The notes under the pieces were generated by a model, which was not told the origin of the DNA, searched no databases, and worked only from the letters and a program-made list of their open reading frames with translations. 24,000 bases of DNA from Gammaproteobacteria bacterium. GTDB lineage: Bacteria; Pseudomonadota; Gammaproteobacteria; Arenicellales; JAJDZL01. The translations under genes and the position numbers were made by a program. The stretch is taken from the NCBI GenBank assembly GCA_022824665.1, contig JAJDZL010000158.1, positions 23,847 to 47,846 of the forward strand, in the 5' to 3' direction. This document shows positions 11,215-24,000 of the stretch, in pieces (position 1 is the stretch's first letter; the number at the start of each line of letters is the position of its first letter).

Positions 11215-13653
11215 TCAGATGTCGATATTTATCGCTGACAGCGCTTTGGCCTCGATAAACGCTCGGCGCGGCTCCACTTTGTCACCCATCAGGGTTTCAA
11301 AGGTACCATCTGTGTTGAAAAGATCCGTGATCGCAACACGGCGCAGTTGGCGCTCATTCATGTCCATCGTTGTTTCGCGCAACTGATCCGCATTCATTTC
11401 ACCCAGACCCTTGTAGCGCTGGATCGTCATTGCTTTTCTCGCATCGTGCATCAGCCAGTCGATCGCTTCCGCCAAATCAACGAGTTCAGCGCGCTTCGAG
11501 CCACGTTTGACAATGACTGCGGATACCTCGTGTTTACGCATCTCCTCGGCAAGCGCAATCAGCGAGCGATAACTTGAAGAGCTGGCAATCACCCTGTCCA
11601 GCACCGATTCGGTGCGGCTGCCCATGTAATCTCTTTCTATTCTGATACCAAGTCCAGTGTTATCGCCAACCGGCACCACCTCAATCGTATACCGCCCGCC
11701 GGCATCTTCAAGTGCCTCCGCCAGCATTCCGGCAAACGACTCAAGATAAAGCCGATCATTAAACCGTTTGGCATCAAGCGGCTGAAATTTGCTTAGCAGC
11801 TCAAGCACTTGCGGGTCGATGCGATCAGCCAGAGTTTGTGCAGCATGCCTGGCGCTCACCCTTGTACGACATAGATTTTCAAGTGTATCAGCTTCGAAAA
11901 CGAACGCATCTTCATCGTTGACAGAGCCATTCATCAGTTGAACTTTCGCTTCCTGTATTGCATGTTTCAGAACATAGTTATCAAGCTCGTTATCGTCATT
12001 GAGGTATTGTTCTGACTTTCGGTGCTTCGCCTTATACAGTGGCGGCTGTGCGATATACAGATGGCCCCGTTCAATGAGTCTGCGCATCTTGTTATAGAAA
12101 AACGTCAGCAGCAGGGTGCGAATATGTGAGCCGTCAACATCCGCATCAGTCATGATAATGACGCGGTGATAACGAAGTTTTTCAATATCAAAATCCTGGT
12201 CAACCCCGGTACCAAGCGCAGCGATCAGCGTCTGAATCTCTTCTGATGCAAAAATCTTGTCAACCGATGCCTTTTGTACATTCAGAATCTTGCCCTTGAG
12301 CGGCAAAATTGCCTGGTATTTTCGATCGCGCGCCTGCTTTGCGGAGCCACCGGCAGATTCGCCCTCCACCAGGAACAGTTCACTTTGCGCAGGGTCCTTT
12401 TCCTGGCAATCGGCAAGTTTGCCGGGCAGGGTGGTTGAATCGAGCGCATTGCCGCGCGCTCTCGCCCTTTCTTTTTGCACGCGCTCTCGAACTGCGGCGG
12501 CATTGACTGCTTTTTCACAAATCTGTTGGGCAACCTTGGGGTTTTCCTCCAGAAATTCCTTCAGGCCTTCACCGATAACCGAGCGCACTGCACCTTCAAC
12601 ATTGGACGAAACCAGTTTGTCTTTGGTCTGGGATGAGAATTTGGGATCGTGTACCCTGACCGTCAGTATTGCAATGAGTCCCTCGCGAATATCTTCACCC
12701 TTGATGCTGATTTTTGTGCCGATGCCATTCGCGTCCATGTAGGAGGCGACTGTCAAAGTCACACCCTTGCGGAATCCAGTCAGGTGAGTGCCGCCGTCGC
12801 GCTGATAAATGTTGTTGGTGTAGCTGCGGGTGTTCTCGTCGTAGTATTGACTGCACCACTGCAGTGCTGCACTGACTGAAATCCCGTCCCGCTCGCCACT
12901 GACTGCGATCACGTCCTCATTGATACGCTCCCGCGAACGGGTCATGTCGGCGACATATTCGAAAATGCCGCCGGCCTTTTCCATAATGTCGCGGCGACCG
13001 TCTCGTTCATCATTGAGTTCTATTTTTACGCCAGGATTGAGGTAGGTGAGCTCTCGCAGCCGCTCGTGCAGCGTTGCAAAACTGAAGGTTGTATCACTGA
13101 AGTACTTTTGCGAGGGCTTAAACCGAACTGAAGTTCCCGTCAGTTTCGTCTGACCGATGGTTCTGAGCGCAGCAACCGGCTCACCCTCTTCAAACTCCTG
13201 GTAGTGAACCTCACCTTCCCGATAAATAGTCATTTCGACTTTTTCGGAAAGCGCATTGACGACCGATACGCCAACTCCATGCAGACCACCCGATGCGGTG
13301 TAAGACTCGTCATCAAATTTGCCGCCGGCATGCAACACTGTCATAATAATCGTCGCACTGGGCAGATCTTCGCCGTTCGGACCTTCCCCCTCCATAATTC
13401 CGACTGGAATCCCGCGGCCGTTATCCTCAACCGACACTGCACCGTCGGCGTGAATCGTAACAACAATGCGATCGCAAAATCCCTCTGCGACTTCGTCAAT
13501 CGCGTTATCGACCACCTCGGTGACCATGTGATGCAATCCAGTACCGTCATCGGTATCCCCGATATACATTCCAGGGCGTTTGCGGACCGGCTCCAAACCG
13601 CGCAATACCTTGATACTGGAGCTATCGTAGCCGTTGCTTGCTGCTGATGTCAT
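11215..13653 (-). CDS. gyrB: DNA gyrase subunit B
   Basis: 812 aa. GHKL ATPase motifs (GLHHMVTEVVDNAIDE, GGLHGVG), Toprim (LFLVEGESAGGSA, IMTDADVDGSHI), PLKGKILNV and QRYKGLGEMN. Confidence 0.97.
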   Translation of the reverse strand: MTSAASNGYDSSSIKVLRGLEPVRKRPGMYIGDTDDGTGLHHMVTEVVDNAIDEVAEGFCDRIVVTIHADGAVSVEDNGRGIPVGIMEGEGPNGEDLPSATIIMTVLHAGGKFDDESYTASGGLHGVGVSVVNALSEKVEMTIYREGEVHYQEFEEGEPVAALRTIGQTKLTGTSVRFKPSQKYFSDTTFSFATLHERLRELTYLNPGVKIELNDERDGRRDIMEKAGGIFEYVADMTRSRERINEDVIAVSGERDGISVSAALQWCSQYYDENTRSYTNNIYQRDGGTHLTGFRKGVTLTVASYMDANGIGTKISIKGEDIREGLIAILTVRVHDPKFSSQTKDKLVSSNVEGAVRSVIGEGLKEFLEENPKVAQQICEKAVNAAAVRERVQKERARARGNALDSTTLPGKLADCQEKDPAQSELFLVEGESAGGSAKQARDRKYQAILPLKGKILNVQKASVDKIFASEEIQTLIAALGTGVDQDFDIEKLRYHRVIIMTDADVDGSHIRTLLLTFFYNKMRRLIERGHLYIAQPPLYKAKHRKSEQYLNDDNELDNYVLKHAIQEAKVQLMNGSVNDEDAFVFEADTLENLCRTRVSARHAAQTLADRIDPQVLELLSKFQPLDAKRFNDRLYLESFAGMLAEALEDAGGRYTIEVVPVGDNTGLGIRIERDYMGSRTESVLDRVIASSSSYRSLIALAEEMRKHEVSAVIVKRGSKRAELVDLAEAIDWLMHDARKAMTIQRYKGLGEMNADQLRETTMDMNERQLRRVAITDLFNTDGTFETLMGDKVEPRRAFIEAKALSAINIDI

Positions 13654-13757
13654 ATGGTCTGATTATTGATGAAGAAATCTGTTCAATTGATGCACCCGGT
13701 TCATCAGGCACTTGGGATATGCCTGCAACAAAAGGTCAGGCAAACAAACTGTCGAGC

Positions 13758-14972
13758 TTAAGTGTCTTTGAGTAACATAACGAGAAAGGTTGTCGAAGCC
13801 TCTTCCGGAAACTTGATCTGGCAGGCAGATTGCGTCGCGCGCAGATAAAGCTCAACATTCTCACATTCCGGCATCGCTTCCAGTGCATCCAGCAGATAGC
13901 GGTAATTAACCTGAAATTTGTGCTCGGAGATGTTCTCGTCTACGTTCATCGTGTGTTCAATTTTCTTCTGCACGATGTCTGCTACCATATCCAGCCGGCC
14001 ATTGCTGACGACTACGTTTGCAGCAATTTTCCCCTTGTTCGGATCTTTGTGTGCCATACCGAGAATTCCGACCATGTTCAGACCGCTGGCCAACTCGCTG
14101 CGGTCTGCCCTAAACGCCAGCTCCAGGTTGCCGGGCACTGCAGCCCGCCAGTCCGGAAAGGCGCCTTCCATTAATTTCGAAGTGAACGAAAAGTTCGGTG
14201 TTGACATTCGTAAATGCGCGCTTTTGAACTGCACTGTTACTCTTGATGTCAGAGACGACAGCACCTTGCTCAATTCAATTGCGGTTTTTCTCGGCACCAC
14301 TGCGCGGTGTCGAAGTTCTAAATCAGGTGCGTCAATATTGGACTCGCTCATCGCCATACGATGACCGTCGGTGGTAACCGCCCGCACACAGCTGTCGGCA
14401 ATCTCCAGCAACGTCGCATTCAGATAATGACGCGGCTCATTCTTACCCATCGCATGCTCGGTTCGCCGGAAAATGTTACGCAGCGCATAGCGATCCATAT
14501 CGAATTGCACAGTCCATTCTTCCTCACCGACGTTCAGGTATGGAAAATCTTCAGCATCAAGCAGCGACTCGGTCATTGCGTTTTTGTAGTCCTCTGTCGA
14601 AAATTGTGCGTCCGGCGCACTCCCGTTCGCATTCGCAGCAGGCACACTGTCCACTTGAGCACTGTCAATGTTCTCTACAACCAGCCTGGTACCAGCCTGG
14701 TTGAAGTCCAGCCTGCTGCCGCTTGGCTGACGCCGGCAGTACTCCAGCAACATCTGCGCTGAACAGACAAACTTTCCTTCCGCAGAGACCTCCACATCCT
14801 CGATTCTTTCGCTGGCCTCGAGATCGATGCTCGATCCCCACAAACGGATGCCACCGTCGACCGATTCGATCAATACCTGGGCCAGTATTGGAATAGTTGG
14901 ACTGCTGTCGATGACCGATGCCACGCGGCTCAACGGCTCGATGATCGTATCTTTTTCAATTGTGAATCGCAT
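13758..14972 (-). CDS. dnaN: DNA polymerase III beta sliding clamp (divergent, with an internal insertion)
   Basis: MRFTIEKDTIIEPLSRV... parallels E. coli MKFTVEREHLLKPLQQV. VTTDGHRMA, VVPRKTAIEL and FTSKLMEGAFPDW match the conserved clamp motifs. It lies between dnaA and gyrB. 404 aa versus ~366 typical. Confidence 0.9.
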   Translation of the reverse strand: MRFTIEKDTIIEPLSRVASVIDSSPTIPILAQVLIESVDGGIRLWGSSIDLEASERIEDVEVSAEGKFVCSAQMLLEYCRRQPSGSRLDFNQAGTRLVVENIDSAQVDSVPAANANGSAPDAQFSTEDYKNAMTESLLDAEDFPYLNVGEEEWTVQFDMDRYALRNIFRRTEHAMGKNEPRHYLNATLLEIADSCVRAVTTDGHRMAMSESNIDAPDLELRHRAVVPRKTAIELSKVLSSLTSRVTVQFKSAHLRMSTPNFSFTSKLMEGAFPDWRAAVPGNLELAFRADRSELASGLNMVGILGMAHKDPNKGKIAANVVVSNGRLDMVADIVQKKIEHTMNVDENISEHKFQVNYRYLLDALEAMPECENVELYLRATQSACQIKFPEEASTTFLVMLLKDT

Positions 14973-15250
14973 AGTTAACCGAAGAAAAAATTAGTGATCT
15001 AATATTTTATTTTTTATTAGGTCTGTGAAGTACACCAACAACCCAAATAAATGCGGTGTAATCAACTGGATAAATCACCAAAACCTGTTAAGTATTCAGT
15101 GAGGCTAAAGTGGAAGATTGTGGACAGGATTCAACTTGAAATCAGCTCGATTGAGTTATTCACATTGATTCATCAAATTATACACCGGTTGTTAACAACT
15201 TGCAGTAGGCTGTGACGCTCAAATGTGCTTTTTCCGGATCTCGATCTGAC
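14973..15250. promoter_or_regulatory. Long AT-rich dnaA-dnaN spacer with DnaA-box-like 9-mers (candidate oriC or DnaA-regulated dnaN promoter region)
   Basis: 278-bp spacer. It has a near-pure A/T tract around 14985-15020 (aaaaaattagtgatctaatattttattttttattag). Matches to TTATCCACA or its complement: TTATTCACA 15156-15164 (8/9), TTATACACC 15178-15186 (7/9), TGTGGACAG 15119-15127 (7/9) and ACTGGATAA 15065-15073 (7/9). No perfect box. Confidence 0.35.
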
Positions 15251-16618
15251 TTACTGCACGAACTGTTCGTGCAGGTTTTTGTACTCGTCCCGAAACTGCT
15301 TGTCCTGTTGTTCGCGTTCACGCACTTTTTTGAGCGCGTACAAGACAGTCGCATGATTCTTGCCGCCAAATGCTTTGCCGATTTCCGGCAGACTCTTGCT
15401 GGTAAACTCCCGACAAAGACTCATTGCCACCTGGCGTGCCAAAACCAGGTCAGCTCTTCTTTTTGCTGACAGGATATCCTTGAGCCGCACGTCGTAATAG
15501 CGTGCAACGGCTGCCTGAATATCATCGATGGTGATGGTTCGGTTGCTGAACTCAAGCAAGTCCTCCAACTGATTCCTGACAAACGCAATGGTGATTTCCT
15601 TGCCCATGAATCGATGGCTGGCTGCCAGTTTGTTGAGTGCACCTTCCAGTTCGCGTACACTGGTTGTGATATTTTCGGCCAGGAACCTCAGTACTTCCGG
15701 TTTGATATGAATATCACGCAGCTTGGCCTTGATTTCCAAAATGGCAATACGCGTTTCGAGCTCCGGCGGACTAATCCGCACGGTTAGCCCCTGACTGAGC
15801 CGCGACTTGATCCGGTCTTCCACCTGCACGAGTTCCCGGGAAAATTTGTCGCTGGTAATAATCACCTGTTTGCCACCTTCCAGCAGAAGATTGAATGTCT
15901 GCAGGAATTCCGCCTGTGAGGACTCCTTGCCAGAGAACAGGTGAATGTCGTCGATAAGGAGCGCATCCAGTTCACGATATGCGTTCTTCATTCGCTCGGC
16001 AGCTTCATTGTTACGATTCAAAATAGCGTTAATGATGTGCTGAACAAAATTCTGTGCGTTGACATAGCCGACCTTGGCGTTCGGGTATCGATCCTGCAGC
16101 GCGTGACCGACCGCCTGCATGAGGTGTGTCTTGCCAATTCCGACTGTACCATAAAGAAACAGCGGATTGTATTCACGCCGGCCAGGGTCTTTGCTGGCCG
16201 CCTCCGCGGCACAGCGGGCGAGCCTGTTTGAATCGCCGACGATGTGCTGGTCAAACGTGAAAATTGGCGACAGCGGGCTGAATCCGAACTTCAGCGTGCC
16301 GCCCTTGTTTTTTGAAGAATTGCTGGCCGGCAGCGCCCTGCTTTTACCGTTCCCGCTGCGCGCGAGAGGTGCGCCTGTTGATTCCAGTTCAACTTTAACG
16401 GATATCCGGTCGCCATAGTATGCACTGGCCAATTCGGTAATGCGCTCCAGCCACCTCGATTCAACCGCGTTTCGAACATATGGGTTCGGTGCCCTGAGCA
16501 CCAGCGCACCATTGACCGCATCCGCACTCAATGTGCGAAGTGAGGCGTGGAGGTCTTTTTCGCTAACCTCCTGCCCCAGCTGGACAAGGACAGTTTCCCA
16601 TAAACTCAAAGGTATCAT
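15251..16618 (-). CDS. dnaA: Chromosomal replication initiator protein DnaA
   Basis: Walker A GTVGIGKTHLMQAVG, Walker B LLIDDIHLF, and the C-terminal DnaA-box-binding helix-turn-helix (ARQVAMSLCREFTSKSLPEIGKAFGGKNHATVLYALKKV); 455 aa. Confidence 0.97.
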   Translation of the reverse strand: MIPLSLWETVLVQLGQEVSEKDLHASLRTLSADAVNGALVLRAPNPYVRNAVESRWLERITELASAYYGDRISVKVELESTGAPLARSGNGKSRALPASNSSKNKGGTLKFGFSPLSPIFTFDQHIVGDSNRLARCAAEAASKDPGRREYNPLFLYGTVGIGKTHLMQAVGHALQDRYPNAKVGYVNAQNFVQHIINAILNRNNEAAERMKNAYRELDALLIDDIHLFSGKESSQAEFLQTFNLLLEGGKQVIITSDKFSRELVQVEDRIKSRLSQGLTVRISPPELETRIAILEIKAKLRDIHIKPEVLRFLAENITTSVRELEGALNKLAASHRFMGKEITIAFVRNQLEDLLEFSNRTITIDDIQAAVARYYDVRLKDILSAKRRADLVLARQVAMSLCREFTSKSLPEIGKAFGGKNHATVLYALKKVREREQQDKQFRDEYKNLHEQFVQ

Positions 16619-16698
16619 GAAATTTCCGTACGGCGACTCGCGAATGTTAAATCGTTGGGTCTGCGCCTGAAGAACCCGACGAGCGAAGCGCAGGGTCG

Positions 16699-16728
16699 TT
16701 AGTACCCGACATTGTCTTAGTACCCGAC
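16699..16728. repeat. 12-bp direct repeat TTAGTACCCGAC x2 (18-bp period) upstream of dnaA, plus a third ACCCGAC core at 16674-16680
   Basis: Exact copies at 16699-16710 and 16717-16728. They lie 81-110 bp upstream of the dnaA start codon in the dnaA-rpmH divergent region. Confidence 0.6.
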
Positions 16729-16839
16729 TTTACCGGCAAAAATAGCGGCACTCAAAATAGCCGCTCCGGTCGTGCTATCTTACACCAAATTCACCACAAG
16801 CGTTAATAGAATTTTCCTTCCTGCGGCAGGATTTTCGTT

Positions 16840-16848
16840 TGCTATAAT
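16840..16848 (+). promoter_or_regulatory. Candidate extended -10 promoter element for rpmH-rnpA-yidD-yidC
   Basis: TGcTATAAT (TG at 16840-16841, TATAAT at 16843-16848), about 95 bp upstream of the rpmH ATG. No convincing -35, which is consistent with an extended -10 promoter. Not experimentally supported. Confidence 0.35.
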
Positions 16849-16942
16849 TTTTCAACCAATTTTGCGCATGATAATATGCAGCAATCCGCGCCAATGAGAC
16901 GGACACGTCGCCTAATGGGAACACCTAACTGGATTTATTCTT

Positions 16943-17077
16943 ATGAAACGCACATTTCAACCCAGCAATCTGAAACGAAAGCGAAAGCACGGGTTCAGGG
17001 CCCGAATGCGAACCCGCGGTGGGCGGGCGGTGATCAACGCACGCCGGGCACGGGGACGTGCGCGTTTAAGTGCGTGA
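16943..17077 (+). CDS. rpmH: 50S ribosomal protein L34 (too short for the ORF track)
   Basis: Manual translation gives [44 protein letters not shown], 44 aa, a near-canonical L34 sequence, divergent from dnaA. Confidence 0.95.
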
Positions 17078-17438
17078 TGCCTCCGGGCCGCAGCAAGGTT
17101 TTCAGCTGTCACGCAACTGCAGGCTGACCAGATCGGCTCAGTTCAAGGCAGTCTTCAGTCAACATAGCAAGGTTTCAAATCGTTATTTTCGGATACTGGT
17201 TCAACACAGGCAGGACTCACCTGATTCACGACTAGGAATTATCGTCTCCCGCAGGGTATCGCGCAAAGCTGTCAATCGAAATCGTATCCGGCGCCAGTTG
17301 CGTGAAGCGTTCAGGCTCAAGCGTCACAATCTGAAAAAAATGGACCTGGTCGTTATTGCTCACCGCAGCTGTGAGGACACGGTCAACAAAGAGCTTCGCA
17401 GACAAATCATCAAGTTGTTCAACAAACTCGAATCATGA
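17070..17438 (+). CDS. rnpA: Ribonuclease P protein component
   Basis: RNR motif region [24 protein letters not shown] and MDLVVIA; 122 aa from the GTG at 17070, which overlaps the rpmH 3' end by 8 nt. The start codon is uncertain. Confidence 0.85.
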
Positions 17439-17662
17439 AACGCATTCTCATCGTTTTCGTAAAGGTTTATCGCTATGCGATCAGTCCCTTTATGGCACCG
17501 TGCTGTCGCTTTCATCCGACCTGTTCCAGTTATGCGCTGCAGGCGCTTGAGCAGCATGGCGCGTTGAAAGGCACCTGGTACTCGATTCGCCGAATCAGCC
17601 GCTGTCATCCCTGGCATCCGGGTGGCTTTGATCCGGTTCCACGCACGCAGGACCAAAACTGA
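17435..17662 (+). CDS. yidD: Membrane protein insertion efficiency factor YidD
   Basis: [31 protein letters not shown]...[14 protein letters not shown] is the YidD signature. ATGA overlap with rnpA. Confidence 0.9.
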
Positions 17663-19359
17663 TGGATTTTCGCCGCGCGCTGCTGTCGATTTCGCTTGGC
17701 CTGGTTTTGCTGCTGATCTGGCAGGCATGGCTCGACTTTGACAGGGGACAATCGGAATCCGTACCAGTCGGCGAGCGCGCTCAACTTGACTCAGAGCTAC
17801 CTGCAACCCCGGTTGCACAGCCGCAAACACAGCCCTCAGCAGTACCTGAAGCACCCGATGCACCAGCCGCGCCCGCTACCGCGGGCATTTTGCCGCAGGT
17901 TCAGCAGGAAACTGGCACCCTGATTACGGTTGAGACGGATTTACTGAAAGTCAATCTCGATACAGTCGGCGGACAACTGCGCGATGCTCGCTTGCTCAAA
18001 TATCCGGTGGAGGTTGAAATGCCGGATGTACCGTTCAGGCTGCTGAAAGATCAGCCTCCGGATTTGCTGATTGCGCAGTCGGGACTGGTCGGCAATGATT
18101 TCGAGTACCCCAATCACAAAACCGAGTTCAGTGCGGAAGAAAACGCCTATACGCTAGCGACGGATGAGCAGACTTTAGAGGTACCGCTTTACTGGCGCGC
18201 TGCAGACGGTGTCGAGTACACCAAGATATTTACCTTTTACCGAGACAGCTACCTCATTGATATCGAATACCGGGTGGACAATCGCAGCGGTCGAACCTGG
18301 CAAGGCTATCAGTATGGCCAGTTTCTGGCGACTGAGCAGGACTCTGAGCGCGAGGGATTCTTGTTCCTGCAGGCCTTGCCCAGCTACCAGGGCGCGGCAA
18401 TCTATACGCCTGAGGACAAGTATGACAAGATTGACTTCAAGGAAATTCGCAACGACAAGCCGGTGTTTGAGACTGAATCGGGCTGGGTGGCCATGCTGCA
18501 GCACTATTTTGTCACGGCCTGGCTGCCGGAAGAAAGCGCCCCTTACCGTCTTTACACCAGAACGCTCGCTGACACCGCGGCGCAGACTCGCTATCAGGTC
18601 GGCTATGTCACGCTGACACCCACCACGGTCGCCAATGAATCGGTCGGCTCCCTTAACAGTCGGATCTATGTCGGTCCCAAGGAACAGGATCGGATCAAGG
18701 ACCCTGCCGAGGGCCTGATTCTTACCGTCGATTACGGCTGGCTGACACCCGTCTCTTCACCGCTTTTCTGGATCCTGAGAAAAATTAACGATTTCGTTCA
18801 GAACTGGGGCTGGTCAATCATCATTCTCACCCTGCTCGTGAAGATCGTTTTCTATCCGCTGTCGGCAGCCAGTTACAAGTCGATGGGGAAAATGAAAAAA
18901 CTGCAGCCGCGCTTAAAGACGCTTAAAGAGCGCTATGGCGATGACAAGCAGAAGCTCAACCAGGAAATGATGCAGATTTACAAGAAAGAGAAGATCAATC
19001 CGTTGGGTGGCTGTTTGCCAATTCTGATTCAAATACCTGTATTTATTGCACTTTATTGGGTTTTGCTGGAAAGTGTCGAGCTTCGCCAGGCGCCGTTTAT
19101 CTTTTGGCTCACTGATCTTTCCCGGTCTGATCCATATTTCGTGCTGCCCGTTTTGATGGGCGCATCGATGTTTGCACAACAGTTTTTGAATCCGACCCCG
19201 CTGGATTCGCTGCAAAAGAACATCATGATGAGCCTGCCCATTGTTTTTACGATATTCTTTCTGTGGTTCCCGTCCGGGCTGGTGCTTTACTGGCTCGTCA
19301 ATAACATTCTTTCAATTGCCCAGCAGTGGTACATCACACGCAAACTGCTGACCGAGTAG
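17662..19359 (+). CDS. yidC: Membrane protein insertase YidC
   Basis: N-terminal [23 protein letters not shown], a large periplasmic P1 domain, and a C-terminal 5-TM core (GWSIIILTLLVKIVFYPLS...MKKLQPRLKTLKERYGDDKQKLNQEMMQIYKKEKINPLGGCLPILIQIPVFIALY); 565 aa. The start shares one base with the yidD stop. Confidence 0.95.
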   Translation: MDFRRALLSISLGLVLLLIWQAWLDFDRGQSESVPVGERAQLDSELPATPVAQPQTQPSAVPEAPDAPAAPATAGILPQVQQETGTLITVETDLLKVNLDTVGGQLRDARLLKYPVEVEMPDVPFRLLKDQPPDLLIAQSGLVGNDFEYPNHKTEFSAEENAYTLATDEQTLEVPLYWRAADGVEYTKIFTFYRDSYLIDIEYRVDNRSGRTWQGYQYGQFLATEQDSEREGFLFLQALPSYQGAAIYTPEDKYDKIDFKEIRNDKPVFETESGWVAMLQHYFVTAWLPEESAPYRLYTRTLADTAAQTRYQVGYVTLTPTTVANESVGSLNSRIYVGPKEQDRIKDPAEGLILTVDYGWLTPVSSPLFWILRKINDFVQNWGWSIIILTLLVKIVFYPLSAASYKSMGKMKKLQPRLKTLKERYGDDKQKLNQEMMQIYKKEKINPLGGCLPILIQIPVFIALYWVLLESVELRQAPFIFWLTDLSRSDPYFVLPVLMGASMFAQQFLNPTPLDSLQKNIMMSLPIVFTIFFLWFPSGLVLYWLVNNILSIAQQWYITRKLLTE

Positions 19360-20714
19360 ATGCGCGCGGACCCGATACGATCGCTGCCATCTCGACCCCT
19401 GCCGGGGTGGGCGGTATTGGCGTTGTGCGTCTGTCAGGCACCCAGTGCCGTCCGATTGCCAGCGCGCTGGCCGGTGCAGTCCCGCGGCCGCGCAAGGCGC
19501 AGTATCAAACGTTCAAAGATGCTGATGGCAGGCCGATAGACCAGGGCATTGCGCTCTACTTTCCCGCGCCACGCTCCTATACTGGCGAGGATGTTCTGGA
19601 GTTGCAGTGTCACGGTGGGCCAGTCGTGCTCAACATGCTGCTGGGTCGGGTGCTCGAGCTCGGCGCGCGCACCGCTCAGCCTGGCGAGTTCACCGAACGC
19701 GCCTTTTTGAACGACAAACTGGACCTGGCCCAGGCCGAAGCAGTTGCTGATCTGATTATGAGCTCTACTGAGGCTGCTGCGAGAAGCGCAATGCGTTCCT
19801 TACTCGGCGATTTTTCCGCCCGCGTTCACGAGATTCGCCAATCAATCCTCGAGCTTAGAATGTACGTGGAAGCGGCAATCGACTTTCCCGAAGAGGAGAT
19901 TGACTTTCTTGACGACCAGAGTATTGTTCAGCAGCTCGATCAGATTCGCGATGAGTTGACTGACTTTCTTGCCAGCGCGGCGCGCGGGCGAGTGTTCCGT
20001 GAGGGTCTGGATGTGGCCATTGCCGGGTTGCCGAATGCGGGCAAGTCCAGTCTGCTCAACTGCCTGGCGGGCATGGAGCGTTCGATTGTTACGCCACAGG
20101 CCGGAACCACTCGGGATACCGTTGATTTGATGATTGATCTCAATGGCCTGGCGGTTCGTCTGACTGATACAGCGGGGCTTCGCGCGAGCACCGATCCAGT
20201 CGAACGGGAGGGCATCGATAGAGCCTGGCTGGCGGTTCGTGAGGCGTCCCTTGTGCTATACCTGGCTGACATGGGTCAGGGTCTGACCGACGCGGACCTC
20301 GAGAACCTCTCACACCTTGAAAACTGCAATGTGCTGCTGGTCTGGAACAAGATTGACCTTGCGCAGGACAGCTTTGCACCACCGGCACTGCCCAAGGGTG
20401 TGAATGAACAGCTGTCAATTTCGGCCAAATACACGCTTGGAATTGATTTAATTGGCAGCTACATTCAACAGTTTGCAGGTTTTACAGTCAGTGAGGAGAG
20501 CCTCTTTCTGGCCCGTCACCGGCATCTTGAAGCCATGCAAAATGCGCTTGAATTTATTAACCAGGCATACACTGCGCTATACGAGCAGCGTTTGGGGGAT
20601 CTCGGCGCCGAAGACTTGCGGGACGCGATGAATGAGCTGGGCAAGCTGGTCGGTGAGATTTCACCCGATGATCTGCTCGGCGAGATATTTGCCAACTTTT
20701 GTATCGGTAAATAG
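19326..20714 (+). CDS. mnmE: tRNA modification GTPase MnmE (TrmE)
   Basis: DTIAAISTPAGVGGIGVVRLSG, G1 GLPNAGKSSLLN, G3 DTAGLR, G4 NKIDL and the C-terminal FCIGK. The only in-frame start I find is the GTG at 19326, overlapping yidC by 34 nt. Confidence 0.93.
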   Translation: MVHHTQTADRVDARGPDTIAAISTPAGVGGIGVVRLSGTQCRPIASALAGAVPRPRKAQYQTFKDADGRPIDQGIALYFPAPRSYTGEDVLELQCHGGPVVLNMLLGRVLELGARTAQPGEFTERAFLNDKLDLAQAEAVADLIMSSTEAAARSAMRSLLGDFSARVHEIRQSILELRMYVEAAIDFPEEEIDFLDDQSIVQQLDQIRDELTDFLASAARGRVFREGLDVAIAGLPNAGKSSLLNCLAGMERSIVTPQAGTTRDTVDLMIDLNGLAVRLTDTAGLRASTDPVEREGIDRAWLAVREASLVLYLADMGQGLTDADLENLSHLENCNVLLVWNKIDLAQDSFAPPALPKGVNEQLSISAKYTLGIDLIGSYIQQFAGFTVSEESLFLARHRHLEAMQNALEFINQAYTALYEQRLGDLGAEDLRDAMNELGKLVGEISPDDLLGEIFANFCIGK

Positions 20715-20781: not shown

Positions 20782-21717
20782 GTGATGCAAAACAATCAAT
20801 CTGCCAGGGTGCTGGCCCAACTGGGCATTGTGCTGGCATTTGTCGCAGGCATAGCCCTGTGGCAGCACGAGTATCTGATCAATCTGTACATCGCCAATCA
20901 GCTTACCAAAGTCGGCTGGGTGGTGAACGGTGCAATACTGGCTCTGTTTTTACTGGGTCTGACGCAGATGGTGCGGCTTTTGTTACACTATCGCCTTGAA
21001 GAAAATGCGCTGAATGCCTTTTCCAAGGCCGTGAAAAGTGGCGCGACAGACAATATGGACAAGCTGTTGCCGGCAAATTCGATTATCGGCCAGCGTTACC
21101 ATACAGTTGCGGGTTTTTTCAGCTCGCGGACAGAAATCAATCACAATGCACTGGCCGCGACCTTGCTGGCCCGCGAGACGAGCAAGACGAGTTTCATCAA
21201 GTTCGTCAACAACATCCTCATTCTGGCCGGGGTATTTGGCACCATTGTTTCCCTGACCGTCGCGCTGATAGGCGCATCCACCGCAATCTCTGCGACCGAC
21301 AGTTTACGCGGCATTGATGTTGTAATCCACGGCATGTCAACTGCGCTTTCGACCACCATGACGGCAATTTTGGCTTATTTCATATTTGGGTATTTTTACC
21401 TCAAACTCATGGACACACAGTCCTACATCCTGGGGCGGGTTGAGCACGAAACTGCAACTGAACTGATCCCGCGCTACCAGGTGGCGACCCGTTCACCCGA
21501 GCAGGCACTAAGCGAGCTGTTGACTGGAACGGTTGAAACCATCAACAAGTTCAATGAATTCATCAACAAGATGCAGACCATTGGTGAATCACAAAACCAG
21601 GTGCTGGAGAACTTCGAGCAGCTGACCAACGAGAACATGCGGGTCCTGAGCGACATCAGGAGCATATTGCGCGCCGGCTTCAGACTACGGGACGAATCCG
21701 AAAGCGAGCAGGGCTAG
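20782..21717 (+). CDS. MotA/TolQ/ExbB-family proton-channel-like membrane protein with a coiled-coil cytoplasmic tail
   Basis: 311 aa with four hydrophobic segments (about residues 8-27, 44-68, 142-166, 177-209). The last two, ILILAGVFGTIVSLTVALIGA and GMSTALSTTMTAILAYFIFGYFYL, fit the G-x-x-GT ... AL-x-TT pattern of the MotA_ExbB core. Residues 235-300 are heptad-like (LSELLTGTVETINKFNEFINKMQTIGESQNQVLENFEQLTNENMRVL). The start is GTG 20782 or ATG 20785. Confidence 0.7.
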   Translation: MMQNNQSARVLAQLGIVLAFVAGIALWQHEYLINLYIANQLTKVGWVVNGAILALFLLGLTQMVRLLLHYRLEENALNAFSKAVKSGATDNMDKLLPANSIIGQRYHTVAGFFSSRTEINHNALAATLLARETSKTSFIKFVNNILILAGVFGTIVSLTVALIGASTAISATDSLRGIDVVIHGMSTALSTTMTAILAYFIFGYFYLKLMDTQSYILGRVEHETATELIPRYQVATRSPEQALSELLTGTVETINKFNEFINKMQTIGESQNQVLENFEQLTNENMRVLSDIRSILRAGFRLRDESESEQG

Positions 21718-21735: not shown

Positions 21736-24000
21736 ATGGCAGCGGACTCTGGCGGTTTCGTTGACCTGCGCGTTCACCGCGCCACTGAAGGCAACCACTC
21801 CGACGACAGCATATGGCCATCATTTACCGACATCATGATGGTTGTTGTGATGATCTTTCTGATGGCTGCGGTGATCTTTATGTTGCGCAACCTGCAACTC
21901 GACGAAGATATCGCAAAAGCCACCACGGCTGAAATCGAAGCGCAGGAGGAAACTCAGTCACTTCGCGAGAGAACGGCATATCTTACTGATATTATTAATA
22001 AAACAAAAGCCGAGCTGACGCTTACTGAAAACCAGAGAAGTGAGCTTGAAGCATTGTCCGAGGTGCGTGGCACGCGTATCACGGAGCTTGAAGTCGAGAC
22101 TGCCCGGCTGTACCAGACCCAGCAGCAGCTTGCTGCCGAGGTCGCCGGTCTGAACCAGCAGATCGAAGACATTCGACAGCAGCGAAACGCACTGACTCAA
22201 CGTGTCAGTTCGATGAATCAGACCATTGCCGAGCTTAATTCTCTGATCGATGACCGGGCGCTCGAGTTTGAAGTTCTGCAAACCGAATTTACCCGCAAGC
22301 AGCAGCAATTGAGTCTGCTTGAACAGACGCTCACGCAGCGCACCCAAGAGCTGCAGGACTTGACACTGGCGCGCGCGCAATTGCAGGGCGTCATTGATCA
22401 GCTTCAGGAAGTTAAGTCTGAACAGGCACTTGTAATTGAGCAGCAGGTTGAGACACAGGCATTGTTGCGGGAGGAGATATCGAAGCGCGCGAGCGAAATT
22501 CAGGAATTCGAACGCCAGCTGGCAGCCCGTGATGATGCCATTGAGCAGCTTCAGGGAGTTAAGTCTGAACAGGCACTTGCAATTGAACAGCAGGTCGAGA
22601 CACAGGCATTGTTGCGCGAGGAGATATCGAAGCGTACGAGCGAAATTCAGGAATTCGAACGCCAGCTGGCAGCCCGTGATGATGCGTTCCGGGAGCTTAG
22701 CGAGGCAAGCCAACTCCTGCAGTTGGATGTTGACACCCTGTCAGCCAGTCAGCTTGACAATGCCAGGACGATTGCAATCCAGCGGCAAAGCCTTGAATCA
22801 TTAACCGCGCGCTATGCCACCCAACAGGCGGAACTTGAACGTGTTCGAACCGAATCAGCCGCGCGGGACATTGAGTTTGCCAGAACCCGGGACCAGCTGA
22901 CAGCCGCGCTGGCAGATCTGGCTGAAACAAAACAGGTCAGTGAAACGACAAGTGCGCGTCAGCAAGGGGAGCTTTTTGCAATTAGACAGTTGCTCACTCA
23001 AAGTGATCAAACCGTGGAAGTTCAAAAGCAAGAGCTGGCATCCCTGCGTGCGCAGTATGCGGAGCGCCTGGCGGAGCTCAACCGGGTTGAAGCCAACTAC
23101 ATTCAGCGCGAGCGCGAATTGGTGCGCTTGCAGGAACATCTGACAACAGCCATTGAGACGGCCGAAGCACTGAAGGCCCGACTACAGGAGCGGGATACCG
23201 AAATTGGCACACTAAACATCCGGATTGCTGCGCTCGGTGATGAAGTTGACACCTTGAATCGAGCCGATGTAGTCTCAAATGATCAAATAAATCAAATGGT
23301 TGATGAAATTCTGAGTTATCAGAACCAGATTGCCGGGCAACTTGGCCAAATTGCTGAGCTTGAGCAAAACCTGCGTCAGACTGAAGTCGAAAAGGATGAC
23401 ATTGAACGCGAGCTTGAATTCAGCCGGCGGTTGCAGGCCGACCGCCAGGAACAGTTGCAAACCATGCAGGCACTCATGCAGCAGCTGAGCGACGATCTCA
23501 AGGTACGCGATGAGCGACTGGAGTCACTTGCAGCCGAAAATCAGAGTTTGAAGGAGTCTGGTGTGCGCGGTGAGAAACAGATTGTCGAGCTTCGTCAGGC
23601 CTATCAGGAGCGACTGGCCGAATTGGCCAGCATGGAAAGCGCGCTCGCGGCAAGCAGCGGACAGCTGGCTGAACTGCAAAGCGAAATCGTTGATCTTGAA
23701 GAAGAACGTCAACTGATGCTGAGACCCGCGCGAAGTCCGGCTAATCGCTATGTTGTTGAAGTCTACTATGACCGGAGCACTGCAGGGGAACCGATTTATC
23801 AGTACCGCGTGCCAGGCCAGAGCCTGGCCTATACCGTCAGCCGGGAAGCGCTGGATGATATTCTTGAGCAACTGAAAAAGGAGCGTTCTGAAGGCCTGTA
23901 TACCCGGGTCATCTTTCCAAACGAAGACCGATTGACGTTCGGTGATGCGTGGGCGTTCACACAGCATATCCAGTCCAATTACGATTACTATAGCCAGTAA
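21736..24000 (+). CDS. ExbD/TolR(MotB)-like membrane protein carrying a ~600-residue coiled coil between the Asp-bearing TM helix and a small C-terminal domain
   Basis: 754 aa, 18 bp after the previous gene. Residues 27-45 (WPSFTDIMMVVVMIFLMAA) align with E. coli ExbD TPFIDVMLVLLIIFMVAA, including the essential Asp (D32 here, gac 21829-21831). Residues ~55-660 are Q/E/L/A/R-rich heptad sequence. Residues ~670-745 (YVVEVYYDRS...YRVPGQSLAYTVSREALDDILEQLKK...LYTRVIFPNEDRLTFGDAWAFTQHI) follow the strand/helix pattern of the ExbD/TolR periplasmic domain. I found no OmpA-type N-x-x-L-S-x-x-R-A motif. Confidence 0.65.
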   Translation: MAADSGGFVDLRVHRATEGNHSDDSIWPSFTDIMMVVVMIFLMAAVIFMLRNLQLDEDIAKATTAEIEAQEETQSLRERTAYLTDIINKTKAELTLTENQRSELEALSEVRGTRITELEVETARLYQTQQQLAAEVAGLNQQIEDIRQQRNALTQRVSSMNQTIAELNSLIDDRALEFEVLQTEFTRKQQQLSLLEQTLTQRTQELQDLTLARAQLQGVIDQLQEVKSEQALVIEQQVETQALLREEISKRASEIQEFERQLAARDDAIEQLQGVKSEQALAIEQQVETQALLREEISKRTSEIQEFERQLAARDDAFRELSEASQLLQLDVDTLSASQLDNARTIAIQRQSLESLTARYATQQAELERVRTESAARDIEFARTRDQLTAALADLAETKQVSETTSARQQGELFAIRQLLTQSDQTVEVQKQELASLRAQYAERLAELNRVEANYIQRERELVRLQEHLTTAIETAEALKARLQERDTEIGTLNIRIAALGDEVDTLNRADVVSNDQINQMVDEILSYQNQIAGQLGQIAELEQNLRQTEVEKDDIERELEFSRRLQADRQEQLQTMQALMQQLSDDLKVRDERLESLAAENQSLKESGVRGEKQIVELRQAYQERLAELASMESALAASSGQLAELQSEIVDLEEERQLMLRPARSPANRYVVEVYYDRSTAGEPIYQYRVPGQSLAYTVSREALDDILEQLKKERSEGLYTRVIFPNEDRLTFGDAWAFTQHIQSNYDYYSQ
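22399..22692 (+). repeat. Tandem direct duplication, 2 x 147 bp (49 codons), in frame inside the coiled-coil gene
   Basis: Copy 1 at 22399-22545 and copy 2 at 22546-22692. By my manual alignment there are about 7 substitutions over the first ~140 nt. Protein copies: QLQEVKSEQALVIEQQVETQALLREEISKRASEIQEFERQLAARDDA versus QLQGVKSEQALAIEQQVETQALLREEISKRTSEIQEFERQLAARDDA. Confidence 0.95.

Follow-up and report, generated by a model that had tools for sequence, protein, structure and literature searches.

A candidate two-gene envelope motor whose B subunit carries a giant coiled-coil arm

The stretch of DNA analyzed here, referred to as the window, comprises 24,000 nucleotides of a contig from an Arenicellales bacterium (JAJDZL010000158.1, positions 23,847 to 47,846) and ends with two adjacent genes on the plus strand, A and B. 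The A protein has a membrane core resembling MotA, TolQ and ExbB, while B consists of a short N-terminal segment, a single hydrophobic helix, a rod of 605 residues and a small C-terminal head. With moderate confidence, we propose that the two proteins constitute an inner-membrane motor of the 5:2 class, driven by the proton motive force (PMF), in which the B subunit serves as its own periplasmic arm. The B gene is a single open reading frame (ORF) in the ORF list of the window, and the same gene, of 754 codons, is called on a 63.7-kb metagenome scaffold of the European Nucleotide Archive (ENA; locus L149) next to an identical A protein. Position 21811, from which an earlier note on this sequence had counted the gene, is codon 26 and the first residue of the transmembrane helix; the start codon is instead the ATG at 21736. 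The features of the pair are as follows.

20785 to 21717, plus strand: A subunit gene, 310 residues from the ATG at 20785, with an alternative GTG start at 20782.
21736 to 24000, plus strand: B subunit gene, 754 residues plus the stop codon, with orthologues in 60 genome loci.
21736 to 21810, plus strand: N-terminal segment of B (residues 1-25), with a conserved GF-x-DLR motif.
21811 to 21885, plus strand: predicted transpore/transmembrane helix of B (residues 26-50), with the motif W27-P-S-F-T-D32-I-M; the D32 codon is 21829-21831.
21892 to 23706, plus strand: predicted coiled-coil rod of B (residues 53-657), free of proline, with a 3.5-residue periodicity and a heptad register.
22392 to 22685, plus strand: tandem duplication of 147 bp within the rod, found by Tandem Repeats Finder.
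22852 to 22875, plus strand: the sole break of the heptad register in the middle of the rod (residues 373-380), found by a register-tracking dynamic programme.
23707 to 23997, plus strand: C-terminal head of B (residues 658-754), starting with P-A-R-S and ending with Y-D-Y-Y, delimited by the AlphaFold2 (AF2) model and the family profile.

The two genes belong to a widespread family that has so far escaped annotation. An exhaustive search with a profile of the head returned 360 clusters (50% identity) at E <= 1e-3, 322 of them at E <= 1e-10, and the head is always C-terminal in its family. The B protein is covered by none of the families in Pfam, NCBIfam or PADLOC, and the earlier note likewise did not recognise it as a described family. 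The sampled members are named 'hypothetical protein' in their source annotation, apart from two spurious names. Judged from these sequence searches, at least 360 clusters form a family that is defined by the head domain and lacks annotation. A word-indexed protein search with a 111-residue C-terminal query gave no match, which reflects the sensitivity limit of that tool and not absence. The hosts are marine Gammaproteobacteria and Zetaproteobacteria; named sources include Ectothiorhodospiraceae, Chromatiales, Sedimenticola, a scaly-snail endosymbiont, Mariprofundaceae, Arenicellales and Candidatus Poriferihabitaceae, and Acidiferrobacterales and Candidatus Thiodiazotropha are attested only via homologues of the paired A protein. 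Being conserved over 60 genome loci and in 360 clusters, B cannot be a chance ORF. In all 61 of 61 loci A lies immediately upstream of B, and in three distant taxa, where the neighboring genes are unrelated, the two genes overlap by 4-7 nucleotides. Overlapping genes among unrelated neighbors in such distant taxa indicate that the pair is a unit. Two contigs of a single metagenome bin (PBDS01, isolate SP340; loci L046 and L055) each carry a B copy of 841 residues with slightly different head sequences, and these may be either two paralogues or two strains within one bin.

The A protein has four predicted transmembrane helices; its cytoplasmic loop is short, and its C-terminal tail, about 100 residues in length, is helical. 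Pfam MotA_ExbB (PF01618) is matched by 29 of 33 A orthologues at E <= 0.01 (best 3e-6), and the A protein of the window scores 21.2 bits (E 2.6e-4). Its AF2 model has a predicted local distance difference test (pLDDT) score of 80.6. Among the top 50 Foldseek matches of this model in the PDB, almost all are TolQ, ExbB, MotA, PomA or ZorA, the best being TolQ and ExbB with a probability of about 1.0 and target-normalised template-modelling scores of 0.56-0.64. When full-length A was used for a profile search of the PDB, its tail gave coiled-coil noise and nothing else came up. Two threonines, T153 (in G-V-F-G-T153) and T191 (in A-L-S-T-T191), are invariant in alignments of 33 and 40 sequences and align with the pore threonines T148 and T181 of ExbB. 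By model and alignment, A has the MotA/TolQ/ExbB membrane core and keeps its pore threonines. Its length is constant, at 302-345 residues, compared with 294-1,261 residues for B. At the very C-terminus of A (window 21600-21714, residues ~272-310) the motif L-L-R-x-G-F-R-L is strongly conserved, with G298, F299 and R300 invariant. The part of the tail preceding this GFRL motif is helical and variable in sequence, and includes an insertion of about 30 residues in some orthologues from sponge symbionts.

Residues 26-50 (IWPSFTDIMMVVVMIFLMAAVIFML) are the only hydrophobic helix in B, which agrees with the single N-terminal transmembrane segment placed there by the earlier note. W27, P28, F30, D32 and F41 are invariant across 40 diverse family members, while F8, D10, L11 and R12 of the preceding segment are nearly invariant in alignment A1, F8 likewise in alignment A7. 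When a profile of the N-terminal 60 residues is compared with the PDB, the best matches are ZorB chains (8vvi_A, 8vvn_B and 8qyd_F, E 1.8e-4 to 1e-3), followed by ExbD at E 0.07-0.5; in both cases the Asp is aligned on the Asp. All three chains come from cryo-electron microscopy structures of Zorya, 8VVI and 8VVN being those of PMC11890865. By these profile matches the N-terminal helix of B is a transpore helix of the MotB/ZorB/ExbD type with an invariant Asp. The label 'ExbD-like' given in the earlier note is thus right as to the Asp-bearing transpore helix and undersells its closeness to MotB and ZorB, the ExbD matches being the weaker ones. Right behind the helix, N52 and L55 (window 21889-21900) are nearly invariant throughout the family (R-N-x-E/Q-L). 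This segment sits where MotB has its plug and may gate the channel.

On which side of the membrane does the rest of B lie? By homology, residues 1-25 would be cytoplasmic. Because the helices of MotB, ZorB and ExbD are all N-in and A superposes on ExbB and TolQ, the rod and the head should be periplasmic. This is the arrangement from which the earlier note set out, without mention of the TolQ/ExbB-like partner. Alternatively, B could be inserted N-out, or the system could be a Zorya turned around, the rod then being a cytoplasmic signaling tail like that of ZorA and possibly serving phage defence. The coiled-coil tail of ZorA is indeed long and variable in length, ZorB proteins match the B helix most closely in sequence, and A weakly matches the PADLOC ZorA models (E 5.5e-4), through the shared MotA core. 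Charges flanking the B helix do not help to choose, as mean K+R is 1.7 ahead of the helix and 2.0 over the 15 residues that follow. However, the Asp of B lies five residues into the helix from its N-terminal side, as in the N-in MotB, ZorB and ExbD, and the superposition of A on ExbB/TolQ makes the loop and tail of A cytoplasmic, with a short tail. Furthermore, no ZorC-, ZorD- or ZorE-like effector or other recurrent defence gene occurs near the pair, which in Arenicellales occupies a housekeeping position and for which plasmid or phage matches are missing. A cytoplasmic rod is therefore highly unlikely.

The rod itself, residues 53-657 (605 residues), is devoid of proline, has a glycine content of 2.0% and consists largely of E, L, Q, A and R. 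Its 3.5-residue hydrophobic periodicity stands out in local Fourier power (z = 10.5 against shuffles), and in the best register the enrichment of a/d positions reaches 0.46, compared with 0.26 +/- 0.018 in shuffles (z = 11.3). L or I prevails at position a, and L at position d. Under the established Harbury-type rules, I or L at a combined with L at d fits a parallel two-stranded coil. By its composition and periodicity, the rod of B is a genuine and exceptionally long coiled coil. Weak similarities to other coiled-coil proteins carry no further information: PF24161, the precomputed domain of four homologues, is a faint CCDC39 match and was rejected as coiled-coil noise, and matches to SMC, Rad50, JetC and LmuB are generic to coiled coils, lie far under the cut-offs and involve no ATPase heads.

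At 0.1485 nm per residue, the fully extended rod would measure about 90 nm. The earlier note had arrived at the same length and at a similar description of the rod, as some 600 residues of heptads with almost no Pro or Gly. The periplasm, taken at its general value, is 25-30 nm wide. One way out suggested in that note, a rod folded back on itself in about three segments, fares poorly. When the register is tracked along the rod, it breaks at residues 95, 113, 373 and 380 and nowhere else, so that the rod has one central break between two unbroken heptad runs, 113-372 (260 residues) and 380-657 (278 residues). These runs would measure 38 and 41 nm, each exceeding the width of the periplasm, and their continuity argues against a three-segment fold-back.

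Rod length varies widely within the family. Across 175 full-length members the shortest rod has 100 residues and the longest 1,116; the mode lies at 150-200, and the median in an unbiased sample is 199. Of the rods, 97% are free of proline. Rods of 250-400 residues are common, and 13% of the members have 500 residues or more. Comparing orthologues, as the earlier note had recommended, confirms that the rod of the window is long, and places it within a tail of the distribution concentrated in Arenicellales. The usual rod of the family has 150-200 residues, a length of 600 being an expansion specific to that lineage.

How did these rods become so long? The duplication within the window has a period of 147 bp and 2.0 copies with 94% matches and no indels, and the protein matches itself at an offset of 49. 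Since 147 bp correspond to 49 codons, or exactly seven heptads, the duplication preserves the coiled-coil register. In relatives, a unit of 77 residues (11 heptads) occurs in up to about seven copies, and units of 49, 63, 98 and 28 residues are also found; one clade has a unit of 81 residues, which is not a multiple of seven. Repeat arrays explain most of the differences in rod length among orthologues, bearing in mind that the copy numbers derive from metagenome assemblies, which may be mis-assembled. Arrays built from near-identical units are seen at loci L014, L016, L020, L012, L023, L013 and L004-L008, the array of L014 covering residues 395-968 of an orthologue of 1,261 residues. The near identity of the copies indicates recent change. 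By the evidence of their repeats, the Arenicellales rods have grown to 600-1,116 residues via in-register tandem repeats.

A protein that is mostly rod, and whose rod varies freely in length by gain and loss of repeats, has traits typical of spacers and stalks. It is possible that B is chiefly structural, a periplasmic scaffold or spacer anchored in the inner membrane, like Lpp or a filament, with A as its assembly or anchoring partner. The Pfam crescentin rod model is weakly matched by 20 of 78 family members, although these crescentin-type matches are generic to coiled coils and far under threshold. However, A has the fold of a motor subunit, and conservation in the pair peaks at the putative proton-handling residues, T153 and T191 of A and D32 of B, a pattern hard to account for without ion flow. 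We consider a purely structural role unlikely.

The last 97 residues of B form a separate conserved domain, whose core has block-mean pLDDT values of 77-89, mostly 85-89, in the AF2 model. It is predicted to be a small alpha/beta domain with the order strand-strand-strand-helix-strand-helix-short strand, and its invariant residues are R, L, Y, A, F, D, Y and Y. The earlier note had read an ExbD/TolR fold into this region, and that reading survives only in part. The order and spacing of the secondary structure elements match TolR and ExbD, and an HHalign comparison aligns four elements of the head (strand 3, helix 1, strand 4, helix 2) with ExbD residues 80-123, the very elements that had been aligned in the earlier note. 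The score, 18.0 (P 0.008), exceeds that of 150 block shuffles (11.0 +/- 1.9), none of which reached 18.0. The ExbD profile used for this comparison comprised 78 sequences from metagenome loci, a profile of two ExbD/TolR sequences having been uninformative. However, the HHalign probability is below 5%, and neither ExbD nor TolR is among the top 50 Foldseek matches of the head model in the PDB. The top matches there are RNase H-like proteins at E >= 0.08, so that the AlphaFold and Foldseek check proposed in the note brought up no significant match to an unrelated fold either. A sequence search of the PDB with the head profile gave no match. Overall, we lean towards regarding the head as a possible distant domain of the ExbD/TolR type.

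Pfam ExbD (PF02472) is weakly matched by 4 of 32 isolated heads (best E 0.024), while the B protein of the window does not match it at E <= 1. Over 78 whole family proteins the best E is 7.7e-5; in the one member that was inspected the match, of 16.6 bits, runs through the helix region. No OmpA-family match was found for the B protein of the window or among the recurrent families of the 78 full-length or 32 isolated C-terminal sequences, as expected from the statement in the earlier note that the C-terminus is not OmpA-like. TonB_C, TolA and vWA models likewise returned no match for the window protein or the isolated heads. These results bear on a further possibility, namely that the pair is an ordinary ExbBD or TolQR paralogue whose TonB or TolA partner is encoded elsewhere, the rod being an unusually long linker. 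The fold of A, nearest to TolQ and ExbB, and the weak ExbD signals at both ends of B speak for it. On the other hand, the Pfam ExbD threshold (25.4 bits) is never reached by any member, the linker of ExbD and TolR is short and free of coiled coil, and the head and the helix motif together set apart a well-conserved family, which comprises at least 360 clusters. In the contexts examined, genes resembling tonB or tolA are absent next to the pair, though a partner might lie elsewhere in the genome. An ordinary paralogue is very unlikely.

The genomic setting is that of a replication-origin neighborhood, which spans 11215-20714 of the window. Matching ORF sizes to the ENA scaffold identifies gyrB, dnaN and dnaA on the minus strand and, on the plus strand, rnpA, yidD, yidC, mnmE, the A gene and the B gene, in this order. 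Downstream of B, the ENA scaffold and a complete Arenicellales genome continue with mnmG, rsmG, parA and parB. In Arenicellales the pair occupies a fixed site, in the order yidC-mnmE-A-B-mnmG-rsmG. An additional 2.5-4 kb of DNA separates B from mnmG at loci L030, L032, L035 and L059, and mnmE from A at loci L013 and L017; the fixed position can thus accept insertions. Within the window, the predicted start of mnmE (19326) overlaps the end of yidC (19359), and the gap between dnaA and rnpA is about 450 bp. Scans for promoters and terminators around the pair gave chance-level results only. A search for plasmid and phage copies of the system found none, and this, together with the fixed chromosomal position, led us to reject a mobile defence island.

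Ion-driven motors of the 5:2 class turn flagella and supply the power for nutrient import, for the maintenance of the outer membrane, for gliding and for phage defence. Four features of the MotA/TolQ/ExbB and MotB/TolR/ExbD superfamily are found in the pair: the core of A, the pore threonines, the Asp-bearing helix of B and the gene order with A first. A5B2 assembly and ion-driven rotation are presumed from class membership. In the proposed mechanism, five copies of A would form a ring, as in MotAB, ExbBD, TolQR and ZorAB, and two copies of B would insert their Asp32-bearing N-terminal helices into its pore, where T153 and T191 of A and Asp32 of B would handle protons. B would then continue into the periplasm as a parallel, two-stranded coiled-coil stalk, and the head at its end would engage a partner in the envelope, for example the cell wall or an outer-membrane component. 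A typical stalk of 150-200 residues (22-30 nm), about the length of TolA domain II, would just span the periplasm. In Arenicellales the stalk would have been elongated by tandem duplication of whole heptads, to 605 residues in the window and up to 1,116 in relatives. As a rod of 605 residues cannot stand upright in the periplasm, it should be tilted or run parallel to the envelope, and the surplus length might act as a long tether or shaft.

Several points weigh against this proposal. For the A subunit, the Foldseek E-values are about 0.02 and not below 0.001, the A protein of the window falls slightly below the Pfam MotA_ExbB cut-off of 22.9 bits, and a profile search of the PDB with the transmembrane core alone gave no match. 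The head of B is without a significant structural or sequence match in the PDB. The positive-inside rule leaves the topology of the B helix undecided, and the periplasmic placement is taken from homology alone. The assembly as a whole is predicted from sequences and single-chain models. A rod tuned to barely span the periplasm is not a general rule, given that rods of 250-400 residues are common.

Why would such a motor need an arm of 90-166 nm? No mechanism that we considered explains the purpose of a rod this long. It is conceivable, if quite unlikely, that the B dimer is the moving part, the ring turning or pulling the 90-166 nm coil as a proton-driven flexible shaft or winch along the envelope. 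If so, the motor would act over several widths of the periplasm with a reach that evolves quickly via heptad-exact repeat modules, a form of mechanical energy transmission in the envelope without a described counterpart. Returning to the preferred proposal, in which B is a periplasmic arm of a 5:2 motor, the family bears on how motor rotation becomes work across the periplasm. It would represent a minimal two-gene motor whose axle protein is also the arm, and its arms form a natural series, the shortest of 100 residues and the longest of more than 1,100. Such a series allows one to ask whether reach alone is sufficient, whether the excess is neutral or useful, and whether force can be delivered without TonB or TolA. 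The family is also a substantial group of conserved envelope proteins that lack annotation, from marine sulfur oxidisers, iron oxidisers and bacteria associated with sponges.

In the other motors of the 5:2 class, either a separate arm, TonB or TolA, takes over the work from the B subunit, or the B subunit terminates in an OmpA-like domain that binds peptidoglycan. A giant coiled-coil stalk on the B subunit together with a small head is a layout undescribed for this class; coiled coils in B subunits go unmentioned in a 2025 phylogenetic survey of MotAB homologues (PMC12505986), and a review of 5:2 motors includes no such system (PMC9389320).

The pair shares with ExbB-ExbD-TonB and TolQ-TolR-TolA the predicted fold of A, the pore threonines and a single Asp-bearing helix in B, and with TolR and ExbD the order of secondary structure in the head and a weak profile signal. 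Differently from these systems, there are two genes and not three, TonB or TolA is missing from the neighborhood, and the spanning element is a heptad coil within B itself; in addition, A has an N-terminal transmembrane helix that TolQ and ExbB lack. The rod had been likened to TolA domain II in the earlier note, and the likeness holds in length only: the family median is 199 residues, while TolA domain II has a median of 192 and varies between 110 and 335 (PMC12204202). The Arenicellales rods, at 605-1,116 residues, exceed the maximum of that survey. B also differs from the TolA and TonB transducers in that its helix carries a pore-type Asp and not the SHLS motif, and in that the head is neither TonB_C nor TolA_C.

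MotA-MotB and PomA-PomB resemble the pair in gene order, in the motif of the Asp-bearing helix and in the expected dimer of B, but here the OmpA-like domain, the MotB-type plug-linker and nearby flagellar genes are missing. With the non-flagellar 'generic ion transporters' (PMC12505986), the pair shares a condensed cytoplasmic loop in A. The likeness to ZorA-ZorB extends to the motif of the B helix (W-x-S-[FY]-x-D-[LM]-M-T), with 8VVI, 8VVN and 8QYD as its best PDB matches, and to the presence of a very long coiled coil of variable length attached to a 5:2 motor. In Zorya, however, the coil belongs to ZorA, as its cytoplasmic tail, and the terminal domain of ZorB binds peptidoglycan, whereas here the coil is on B, the tail of A has about 100 residues and the genes are in a housekeeping position. 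Zorya effectors are absent near the pair at the loci examined, where the neighbors are mnmE, mnmG, rsmG and parAB or unrelated metabolic genes.

Three further cases invite comparison. In GldL-GldM, the motor of gliding and type IX secretion in Bacteroidota, GldM forms a long periplasmic shaft, a dimer believed to convey motor output across the periplasm (PMC9389320). B would resemble it as a B-like subunit forming such a shaft; nevertheless, the shaft of GldM consists of four globular domains, measures about 18 nm and contains no coiled coil, and no sequence relationship to GldL-GldM was detected. The NCBIfam models NF006542 and NF006543 (PRK09039, 'peptidoglycan-binding protein') align with residues 19-175 of B over model positions 8-178 (E 6e-5), with B scoring 22 bits against a cut-off of 388. 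This alignment suggests another family that combines a MotB-like helix with a coil; its proteins presumably end in an OmpA-like domain, which is absent from B. Finally, TolQ-like genes paired with vWA proteins that carry a transpore helix have been proposed to encode direct force transducers (PMC12204202, section 8, Mol Biol Evol 2025). Those pairs have a vWA head on a short linker and are usually heterologous in their gene pairing, while here a single B gene encodes a long coiled coil and a head of about 95 residues without vWA similarity. The two cases nonetheless agree in their general plan, predicted in both from sequence: a B-type Asp helix is fused to its own periplasmic extension and head, and tolR or exbD is dispensed with.

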